Origin: a virus
Taxonomy: Duplodnaviria > Heunggongvirae > Uroviricota > Caudoviricetes
Length of the DNA stretch: 64,000 bases
Strand: one strand, 5' to 3'
Virus record (IMG/VR): IMGVR_UViG_2880412407_000011
Part shown: positions 27,347 to 29,809 of the stretch, one piece after another
Position numbering within the stretch: position 1 is the first letter of the stretch
Layout: each line of letters begins with the position of its first letter
Position numbers and translations under genes: made by a program
Notes under the pieces: generated by a model
Seen by the model: only the letters and a program-made list of their open reading frames with translations
Database searches by the model: none
Told to the model about the DNA's origin: nothing

Positions 27347-29809
27347 TTAAGAATCAGCCTGACTCGGGATCAGTTTTTGCCAGATAACTGAAACGTATTT
27401 TGCCTGGTAACGGGCGTCATCAAGTGCATTATGGCGCTCACCTTCGAATGGAATAGCCGTTCTGGCATCGAAGTCTATGGCTTTCCCCAGCTCAACGATT
27501 GTGCGCACATCGCGATCGTTGTAGTAACGCCACGGGCAGGGGATCCCCTGCCGTTCGTATGAACGGCGCAAAATCGTGTTGTCGAAGTTGGCTCCATTTC
27601 CCCAGACCTGAACAAAAAATTCACCGGAGTTTTCGTCGATAAATTCCCGCAATTGTAACAGTGCATCATCTAACGGGATTTCATCGGTCATAATGGCAGA
27701 TTGCGCTTCGCGTGATTGCTTAAGCCACCATTTAATGGTGTCCCGATCAATGACTCCGCCAGCAGTTTCCAGATCGATAGTCTTACTAAATTCCGGTCCC
27801 ATATCTCCGGTTTGCGGATCGAAAAATATTGCACCTATTGAGATAATCGGGGCATCAGGATTTTTTCCCATGGTTTCAAGGTCGATCATTAGATGGTCAC
27901 ACGTCCTGCTGGTGGATGTGATAACGTGATGACCGTTCACCGTAATTAAGGGATCTGCCGTCTCGCCAGTTTCACTATCGCTGGCGTGGTCCTGAGCGCT
28001 GCCAGCATTCTCCTTGTGTGGATGTTCAGCGCCTTCCATTTTCTCCGAATCGTCTTCCTGAACTTCAACCAGGTTCTTGTCATCGAAGGTTTCCTGGTAT
28101 GTTGCGTCGCCCATCACCGCGCCACAATCAGGGCAGTTGCCGCCGCCGGTCTGACCGCAGGCGGTGCAGACTTTTTCCACTTCCTGTTGCGCCACTGGTT
28201 CAGGCTGTTTCGTTTCTGGCTCGTTTTGTAACGCATTTGGGCTGTTTTGTTCCGCTTTCTGGTCGTTCTGTTCCGTTTCTTGCTGGTTCTGGTACACAGA
28301 ATCGCGGGTCTGGATCCCCTTAATCCATTTCGGATCATTCGGGTCGCTAATCCCTTCAACAAATTCTCCGCGAGAGGCAGCCAGTAATTTGTCTGCATCG
28401 ACAGGATTTTGGGGCGGAATGTTTTTCCGGGCTTCATGGAGTTCTGCCCGCAGTTTCTGATATTTCGCATCAACAGAATTTACCTGTGACTGAGCATCCA
28501 GCGGCTGCGTGTCCTGATGATGTTCAGTTGCATCCGGTTCCACTGTTTCAGCCGTTGCCTGTTCATCTGCCATTGCGCAAGATGGTTGCGGTTTTTCTTC
28601 ATCATTTTCTTCTTCTTCTGTTTCCTGCTTAGCAGACAGTTCGCGGTTAACTTCTTCCAGGATATCTTTTTCCGGTGTATGTCGTGCAGCAGTGAGAGTT
28701 TCCTTGCTGGGGTTCTCGTGATCAGTCTCCGTTAAGTAGGCGTTGATATACCCCTGAAGGCGTCCCGGGTAGTGATAAAACTCAGGGTGAGCGCTCCGGA
28801 TAAGTGCAAAAATAGCGGCGCGGGAATAGTCCAGAATACCCGGGGTTGCGCGAAGTGCTGCGGACCATTCTTTGAACGGACTTTCTCTTTTCAGGACGAT
28901 TTCTTTTGCGCGACGATAAACGCTGCCCGGAATTTCATAAATATTAAAATCCATCGGAAGTGTGGCTGCTGCAATCTCCACATCCAGCGTATCGAAGGTG
29001 TGTACTAAATTCGGATTGCGATCGGTTTTGTTCCCGCCACCGGCATTTGCACCGGAAGCCGTACGGGTGATACGCGAAACACGATTTCCTTTCATCCACT
29101 CTTTTGTCAGCAGACCCCGATCAGTGTAGTCAGCGTCCAGGTATGCCTCGAAAAAAGCAGTTATCAGTCCCAGGTCTGAATTACCGGGATTAGGGAAAAC
29201 TTTGTCAGTGTCGCGTACCAGTTTGTGAAGGTCGCGAATCTCCAGCGGGTCGAGCAGCTTTGTTTTGTGAGAAATGGCCAGGGCAGTAACAGCCGGCAGT
29301 TCTTCCGCCCGTGCTATATGTAATGCCTGAAGTTCTTCCCGTGCAACGTGCGTTACTGGTTTTTCGCTGCCGTGTTGCGCAAGCCAGCGAATGGGCAGCT
29401 CCTGACCAGAAACCGGCAGGAGCATATTCTCCTCAATCTCCGTCATGTCTTCGCCGTTGACGTTGGTATTGTCAGTACTGGCTGGTTTCTCCTGCACGGA
29501 GGGAGAGGGCGCGATAAATACCATTGTAATGCCATCTTCCCCGCCTTTTTCGTATCGGTTGCAGAATTCGGTATCAAACACGCCTTCAGGTGGAAGGTCA
29601 TTCACAACGGGTAAATGGACGCGAACGGGTTTTTTAAAGTCGTCTTCATCATAATCGTTGTCATCCATTGCGGTAATGCAGCGGGAGATGGCAACAGATA
29701 ATTTTTTTGCTGTAGTCCAGTAAAAACCACCTTTAATTCCCAGACGTTTTCTGACTTTGTCATTTTTTGCTTCGCAATATAGCGCAAATTCTTCTTTATC
29801 AGTGCTCAT
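27347..29809 (-). CDS. large early protein with C-terminal DEDDh-type 3'-5' exonuclease domain and CxxC zinc ribbon
   Basis: 820 aa; C-terminal motifs DLETMG, NGANFD, H...DD; CTACG...CPDCG zinc ribbon; acidic low-complexity linker; sits in the exo position of the leftward early operon. Confidence 0.6.

Follow-up and report, generated by a model that had tools for sequence, protein, structure and literature searches.

The 64,000-nucleotide stretch of DNA analysed here (the window), held as IMG/VR virus record IMGVR_UViG_2880412407_000011 and assigned to the Caudoviricetes, carries on its minus strand, at positions 27347..29809, a complete coding sequence with an ATG start and 820 codons plus a stop. 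The product was found to be a mosaic of the RecE/YdfE family of prophage exonucleases. A RecE-type carrier, comprising a folded N-terminal module and a tether, is joined to a DexA-like DEDDh exonuclease domain that replaces the RecE nuclease, and this molecular identity is secure. On balance, the protein is probably a one-component 3′-5′ nuclease that degrades or trims DNA ends and is made upon prophage induction, and not a recombinase of the RecET type. The gene itself is an ordinary and common E. coli prophage gene that has already been catalogued. Its translation is 100% identical to the RefSeq protein WP_000102122.1 (“exonuclease”), which occurs in O121/O157 genomes, and relatives have been named “RecE family exodeoxyribonuclease”, “3′-5′ exonuclease”, and sometimes “3′-5′ exoribonuclease” by PGAP. 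The “exonuclease” profile PHROG 2082 (823 positions) covers the protein, and the architecture is also known to Pfam (Exonuc_VIII, YdfE_C, and Rv2179c-like), newer releases of which hold YdfE_N and YdfE_C. Among 5,426 complete E. coli genomes, 75% (4068) contain the DEDDh module, and about 1,280 contain a full-length gene of the window type. Literature searches (ydfE; exodeoxyribonuclease VIII with dicB; Rv2179c) returned no study on a fused RecE-carrier/DEDDh protein.

The C-terminal domain (residues 637-815; 27365..27901, minus strand) was identified by profile, sequence match, predicted fold, and conserved catalytic residues. The Pfam profile of the Rv2179c-like 3′-5′ exoribonuclease domain (PF16473) aligned with residues 639-810 over positions 2-177 of its 177, with a score of 227.2 bits against a gathering cutoff of 27 (E=1.5e-67). 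The motifs DLETMG (residues 643-648; 27866-27883), NGANFD (residues 738-743; 27581-27598), and HNALDDA (residues 793-799; 27413-27433) supply a complete catalytic set, namely D643 and E645 (the DxE of Exo I), D743 (Exo II), and H793 and D798 (the Hx4D of Exo III), and an alignment of 13 divergent fusion proteins revealed that these five residues are invariant or nearly so. When solved structures were searched by sequence, the T4 exonuclease DexA (8KEL) was the sole protein detected (E=1.7e-6). The AlphaFold2 model of the domain, with predicted local distance difference test (pLDDT) scores of 80-95, adopts an RNase H-like exonuclease fold; Foldseek returned T4 DexA as the best match (8KEN/8KEL; E about 4e-10), followed by RNase T, oligoribonuclease (Orn), Cap18, and REXO2, with a probability of 1.00 for DexA, RNase T, Orn, and Cap18. 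The first-pass annotation of this gene, made from the sequence alone, had reported the 820-residue reading frame, each of these motifs, and a C-terminal DnaQ-like (DEDDh) exonuclease, all of which were recovered in the open reading frame list and at the positions given above. It had also proposed that the assignment be dropped if the motifs failed to map to an exonuclease fold; the profile, the sequence match, and the predicted fold all place them there, and therefore its own test does not refute it. A standalone DEDDh protein initiated internally at M641 was considered and rejected, since the ATG is preceded only by an AGGA ~16 nt upstream and by no well-spaced Shine-Dalgarno sequence. One 752-residue DEDDh fusion among the family representatives (P0140) has two catalytic substitutions, DLKTMG for DLETMG and FAN for FDN, and may, from its sequence, be a catalytically dead copy.

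The remainder of the protein is related to RecE, as the first-pass annotation had suggested. BLASTP alignment with K-12 RecE gave 62% identity over residues 58-623 (566 residues), which match RecE residues 50-592, and the homology ends at RecE residue 592, just short of the RecE nuclease domain. The Pfam profile of enterobacterial exodeoxyribonuclease VIII (PF06630) matched residues 57-189 (E=2.5e-34), and residues 1-623 aligned to positions 1-603 of the 877 in the NCBIfam RecE equivalog model NF007259 (E=3.4e-301). The latter score, 1001.5 bits, lies below the curated cutoff of 1269 bits, which leaves the protein outside the RecE equivalog. Given the E-values of PF16473, PF06630, and the NCBIfam model, the motif set in this reading frame is beyond chance. 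The nuclease domain of RecE (PF12684) had no match in the 820-residue protein, and tblastn with that domain found none in the window.

Block-wise comparison revealed the mosaic. Identity to RecE of the Rac prophage is 90-95% over residues 121-260 and 78-90% over residues 401-480, and residues 481-820 are 82-100% identical to a common 823-residue E. coli “exonuclease” of the YdfE type (that of strain G5, for example), the first 256 residues of which coincide fully with the K-12 Qin pseudogene ydfE. A third sequence type, common to phage vB_EcoS-640R1, makes up residues 1-120 and 261-400. Because of these block-wise identities, the gene is best described as a RecE/YdfE hybrid, a positional equivalent of ydfE with a RecE-type N-terminus. 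A simpler description, as the intact orthologue of K-12 ydfE, was rejected, the N-terminus of K-12 ydfE being different and the block identities being those of a mosaic.

The N-terminal region (residues 1-400; 28610..29809, minus strand) was modelled by AlphaFold2 from 78 family representatives with a mean pLDDT of 91.4, disorder being limited to residues 104-111. It is divided into an alpha/beta subdomain (~1-100) and two helical subdomains (121-260 and 270-400), and it has no solved structural relative. Residues 401-636 (27902..28609, minus strand) form an acidic, polar, disordered tether that is common to RecE, YdfE, and the 820-residue protein, with 70-100% identity in blocks to RecE and the G5 type; where modelled, it is predicted to be disordered, with pLDDT below 50 over residues 530-636. 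The acidic low-complexity centre described in the first-pass annotation thus holds for residues 381-636 (aspartate and glutamate 22%, lysine and arginine 8%, polar residues 39%) and fails for residues 1-400, which are folded. Ratios of nonsynonymous to synonymous substitution (dN/dS) are 0.37-0.5 in the tether and 0.06-0.15 in the flanking domains. Measured against phage 640R1, the N-terminal domains have ratios of 0.06-0.08, the DEDDh domain 0.14, and the tether, which evolves faster than the folded parts, 0.37. Purifying selection acts on both folded parts.

Two short elements stand out within the tether. One is a conserved island (residues 475-495; 28325-28387), which RecE, YdfE, and a number of divergent relatives have in common amid fast-evolving disorder and which includes the block SDPNDPKW (residues 488-495; 28325..28348, minus strand) of the family consensus; its conservation is compatible with a possible short docking motif. 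The other is the motif C548-x2-C551-x7-C559-x2-C562 (28124..28168, minus strand), made up of CTACG (residues 548-552) and CPDCG (residues 559-563; together 28121-28168). Fourteen of 150 family representatives, PD-(D/E)XK-type members included, retain all four cysteines with varying spacer residues, and the cysteines occur in K-12 RecE as well, whereas the more divergent DEDDh fusions have an unrelated stretch in their place. The first-pass annotation had called this element a zinc ribbon, which stands as a CxxC...CxxC pattern and goes no further; when the N-terminal subdomains and the tether were scanned with Pfam at permissive settings, nothing beyond PF06630 was found except a zinc ribbon at a non-significant E=0.69, and the modelled pLDDT is only about 50-57. 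The pattern plausibly represents a putative, lineage-restricted zinc knuckle.

The family, which is enterobacterial, is small, with only 274 related clusters recovered in an exhaustive search with residues 1-625 against 1.84 billion cluster representatives. Among 64 representatives of at least 550 residues, the C-terminus is a PDDEXK nuclease (PF12684) in 20, an Rv2179c-like domain in 11, and RecT in two, and the rest have no Pfam domain there. The last group includes a cluster of 12, exemplified by P0129, and a cluster of nine with a third module. The tail of P0129 matches the PHROG “exonuclease VIII” (phrog_412), and it may be a truncated RecE-type nuclease. The third module, ~300 residues at the C-terminus of P0130, P0199, P0207, and six others (locus L020, 4001-6226), matches PHROGs named “exonuclease” (phrog_2489/7838), while Pfam gives it nothing beyond a Rad52/22 match below threshold (E=0.033) at KKSLTDAxKKALSxLGF; on this sequence signal, it may be an annealase. 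The gene that follows it in L020 encodes a Sipho_Gp157 protein. In the two RecT fusions, P0123 (703 residues) and P0186 (756 residues), the RecE N-terminal region is joined in frame to RecT with no nuclease between them. Either deletion in nature or faulty assembly could account for them.

The exchange of nuclease is accompanied by the loss of the partner RecT. Genes of the PDDEXK type have RecT directly downstream in all three loci (K-12 Rac, L012, and L013), and genes of the DEDDh type have xis/int directly downstream and no RecT in all nine independent intact loci (L002, L007, L009, L010, L014, and L015-L018), so that RecT linkage is 3/3 versus 0/9 (Fisher p about 0.005). The same pattern was found in the copy counts from complete E. 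coli genomes, where the RecE nuclease domain (1826 places in 1735 genomes) and recT (1841 places in 1748 genomes) match each other, and the DEDDh module is 4.4-fold commoner (8094 places in 4068 genomes). The adjacent annealing-protein gene of a SynExo system, such as RecET or lambda Red, is present at none of the nine DEDDh loci.

These observations favour the one-component nuclease described at the outset. Inactivation of a LexA-type repressor would lead to transcription of the gene with DicF, dicB, and ydfD from a pL-like promoter, and the protein would be made alongside DicF, DicB, and YdfD, products that serve host takeover. The C-terminal domain would strip nucleotides off free 3′-OH ends by the two-metal DEDDh mechanism, and the N-terminal module and tether would position or oligomerise the nuclease, as they may do for the nuclease of RecE. 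The enzyme would act in lytic development, possibly on host or competitor linear DNA, or on 3′ tails. The closest solved relative, T4 DexA, acts as a DNA exonuclease, which makes DNA the likelier substrate, and a recombinase of the RecET/Red type is unlikely because 3′-5′ activity removes the strand that an annealase needs and because RecT is never linked. Several points weigh against this account. The activity, the polarity, and the preference for DNA over RNA are those expected from family membership, and PF16473 takes its name from an exoribonuclease, Rv2179c. A targeting or scaffold role for the RecE-type N-terminal region is conjecture, the function of this ~600-residue region of RecE having been described as unknown (PMC11611040). 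The absence of an annealase from the window extends to only three families, RecT, Erf, and lambda Bet, Sak/Sak4-type proteins not having been searched for; the tblastn queries, among them also lambda Exo and Gam, Abc2, and a phage SSB, matched nothing there except the DEDDh domain itself. Finally, phage mEp235 (L006, 3775-5859) has a standalone DEDDh homologue, 58% identical, inside an Erf-SSB-Exo-Abc2 recombination module, so that some recombination-related role of the domain is conceivable; lambdoid phages therefore employ this nuclease domain in the company of annealases as well as in their absence.

The alternative that survives best, though we consider it unlikely, is a superinfection-exclusion nuclease of the HREX kind, which would digest the 5-hydroxymethylcytosine (5hmC) DNA of incoming T-even phages and spare that of the host, the benefit to the lysogen explaining near-fixation in E. 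coli. HREX was described in 2025 for EcD, a standalone E. coli DexA homologue that degrades T4 DNA and protects cells (PMC12153337). DexA is the closest solved relative of the window domain, in which DexA residues S87, D90, and W152 correspond to leucine, A716, and Y763. D90, a contact of the DexA tetramer that is needed for cutting unmodified DNA, is lost in the window domain as it is in EcD. The module is intact and under purifying selection in 75% of the complete E. coli genomes, and many of the copies lie in cryptic remnants of the Qin type; the operon neighbour DicB is cited as affecting phage susceptibility (bioRxiv 10.1101/2023.04.14.536235). However, W152, which is required in 5hmC recognition, is replaced by tyrosine, though several relatives keep the tryptophan, and the equivalent of D169 is ambiguous, aligning with F780, between D779 and D781. 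EcD is also a different, standalone protein; its identity with the present one was ruled out by its termini, known from primers (it starts MIDTET and ends TIPETY). Moreover, a pL-type operon is repressed in lysogens, and therefore the protein would not normally be present at phage injection. The HREX claim comes from a single study, and PADLOC returned no match. The anti-restriction nuclease offered in the first-pass annotation is unsupported, having no PADLOC match and no other finding here that bears on it.

A broader and equally tentative proposal, which we would not expect to hold, places the emphasis on the carrier. Residues ~1-400 of RecE/YdfE would be an autonomous domain of new fold that, with the tether, brings interchangeable DNA-end effectors to one target, and the DEDDh form, fixed in most E. 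coli, would be a nuclease that benefits the host (by excluding phages, for example) instead of serving the phage in recombination. The effectors seen on this N-terminal region are PD-(D/E)XK 5′-3′ nucleases, DEDDh 3′-5′ nucleases, RecT, and possibly a Rad52-like annealase. If true, the proposal would explain why full-length RecE, and not the nuclease domain alone, drives linear-linear recombination.

A role in recombination like that of lambda exo or RecE, in which double-strand ends would be processed with host RecA/SSB or an unrecognised annealase, appears improbable. It was one of the functions put forward in the first-pass annotation, and it draws on the occupied exo/bet slot and on the ~600 residues of RecE sequence that have been kept, full-length RecE having been reported to boost linear-linear recombination (PMC11611040). 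T4 DexA has been described as a participant in intron homing, the mEp235 homologue lies between SSB and Abc2, beside Erf, and the other known partners of the N-terminal module are recombination proteins, with fusions of the same module to RecT and to the possible Rad52-like module. Against this, the RecE 5′-3′ nuclease is gone, and the 3′-5′ polarity of the family that replaces it destroys the 3′ tails needed by annealases and RecA; RecET assembly is reported to improve upon loss of xonA, the gene of a host 3′-5′ exonuclease (PMC13048471). No single-strand annealing protein was found at the nine intact DEDDh loci, nor RecT, Erf, or Bet in the window, and the copy numbers of the RecE nuclease follow those of recT where those of the DEDDh module do not. 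Least probable of all, and by some distance from our preferred reading, is an RNA exonuclease whose targets would be transcripts of the host or the phage, or small nucleic-acid signals, or an anti-defence enzyme removing, for example, retron multicopy single-stranded DNA, for although the Pfam and some PGAP names refer to exoribonucleases, RNase T, oligoribonuclease, and REXO2 are among the structural neighbours, and a preprint (bioRxiv 10.1101/2020.06.22.160242) discusses RecE as a trigger of retrons, the DNA exonuclease DexA is the only solved relative by sequence and also the top structural match, the N-terminal carrier is otherwise joined to DNA enzymes, and there is no direct evidence for either role.

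The setting of the gene is that of an early-left operon, in agreement with the lambda exo/bet position assigned in the first-pass annotation. The window is 100% identical to E. coli O121:H19 chromosomes, save for one extra insertion sequence (IS). Upstream of the exonuclease gene, on the same strand, lie a DUF1391 (ydfA-like) gene, DicF, dicB, and a ydfD-like gene, and the exonuclease gene thus occupies the slot between kil-type genes (DicF, dicB, and ydfD) and xis/int. The ydfD-like gene (DUF1482; 29902..30090, minus strand) is immediately upstream in the same operon (PF07358, E=2.9e-15) and is annotated in syntenic genomes. The cell-division inhibitor gene dicB (30087..30275, minus strand) was recognised by the Pfam DicB profile (E=2.7e-36) at residues 36-97 of the open reading frame 30087-30380, and the small RNA DicF (30450..30501, minus strand) by Rfam RF00039 at 75 bits, above the gathering score. 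The location of DicF upstream of dicB shows that this early-left operon is a dicBF operon of the Qin type. In K-12 Qin, DicA represses the pL-like promoter that gives rise to the dicBF transcript, which takes in ydfDE (bioRxiv 10.1101/2023.04.14.536235). The repressor of the present operon, located upstream of it at 32145..32783 (minus strand), is instead of the cI/LexA type, with Pfam Peptidase_S24 and HTH_3 domains. A 216-residue open reading frame between the DUF1391 gene and DicF (31050-31700, minus strand) has no Pfam match and is hypothetical in RefSeq genomes.

On the 3′ side, the exonuclease gene is parted from xis/int by insertion elements. An IS600 copy (26003..27232, minus strand), delimited by its open reading frames, RefSeq annotation, and local BLAST boundaries, is adjoined by a second IS3-family element of ~1.31 kb (24693..26002, minus strand), which was recognised as a gap in the 100%-identity match, being absent from the otherwise identical O121:H19 genomes, and by an ALIL frameshift pseudoknot at 25551-25667. 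This second element is presumably IS629-like. The excisionase gene (DUF1233; about 24443-24700, minus strand), whose 5′ end abuts the insertion sequence, and the integrase gene (23128-24423, minus strand) were both identified with Pfam. These genes (region 23128..24877) are the normal downstream neighbours, the order dicB-ydfD-exo-xis-int being found in intact prophages at several different attachment sites. An inverted pair of IS600 copies (19732-20996 and 26003-27232) brackets a pin-like invertase, int, and xis. The segment 21000-24692 is inverted relative to strain 2014C-3655 (L001), with the ancestral exo-xis-int order kept in the window and broken in 2014C-3655.

The sequence itself adds nothing new, and its value is as a pointer to the neglected question of the RecE N-terminal region, a well-folded region unlike any solved structure, under purifying selection, and joined naturally to nucleases that differ in polarity. 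Only together with the 5′-3′ nuclease is RecT kept, and its strict loss accompanies the DEDDh swap. This natural exchange of nuclease offers a clean genetic handle on the role of the carrier, and on the contribution of a RecT-less 3′-5′ exonuclease in lambdoid prophages of pathogenic E. coli.

Among the known relatives, Rv2179c of Mycobacterium tuberculosis, the founder of PF16473, belongs to the same Pfam family and is unlike the window protein in being a standalone bacterial exoribonuclease; it was neither detected in the sequence search of the Protein Data Bank nor listed among the top 50 structural hits. T4 DexA (exonuclease A; 8KEL/8KEN), the closest solved structure, shares the DEDDh fold and the catalytic residues at 28% identity, but it comes from a lytic phage, stands alone at 227 residues, and has extra loops. 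The standalone lambdoid “Exo” or 3′-5′ exoribonuclease proteins, mEp235 gp30 and mEp460 gp26, are 58-60% identical to the C-terminal domain, have their first residues right at its boundary (MNHLMVDLETMG), and are encoded just upstream of xis, but they do not have the 636-residue RecE-type carrier.

Two relatives bear a carrier as well. RecE (exonuclease VIII) of the Rac prophage (K-12 b1350) has the same Cys4 motif, acidic tether, and early-left operon slot before xis/int, but ends in a PD-(D/E)XK 5′-3′ double-stranded DNA exonuclease (PF12684/DUF3799) and is translationally coupled to RecT. YdfE of Qin, a pseudogene in K-12 (b1577) and an intact 823-residue protein in G5, KE48, and others, has the same position after dicF-dicB-ydfD, and the G5 protein is 93% identical over residues 471-820 and 100% identical in the DEDDh domain; over the first ~250 residues, however, the two are unrelated (7-17% identity in residues 1-240), and identity reaches only 35-38% over residues 270-400. 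The 820-residue protein therefore shares the operon position and the C-terminal half of the YdfE family without its N-terminal domain, its own N-terminus being of the RecE type.

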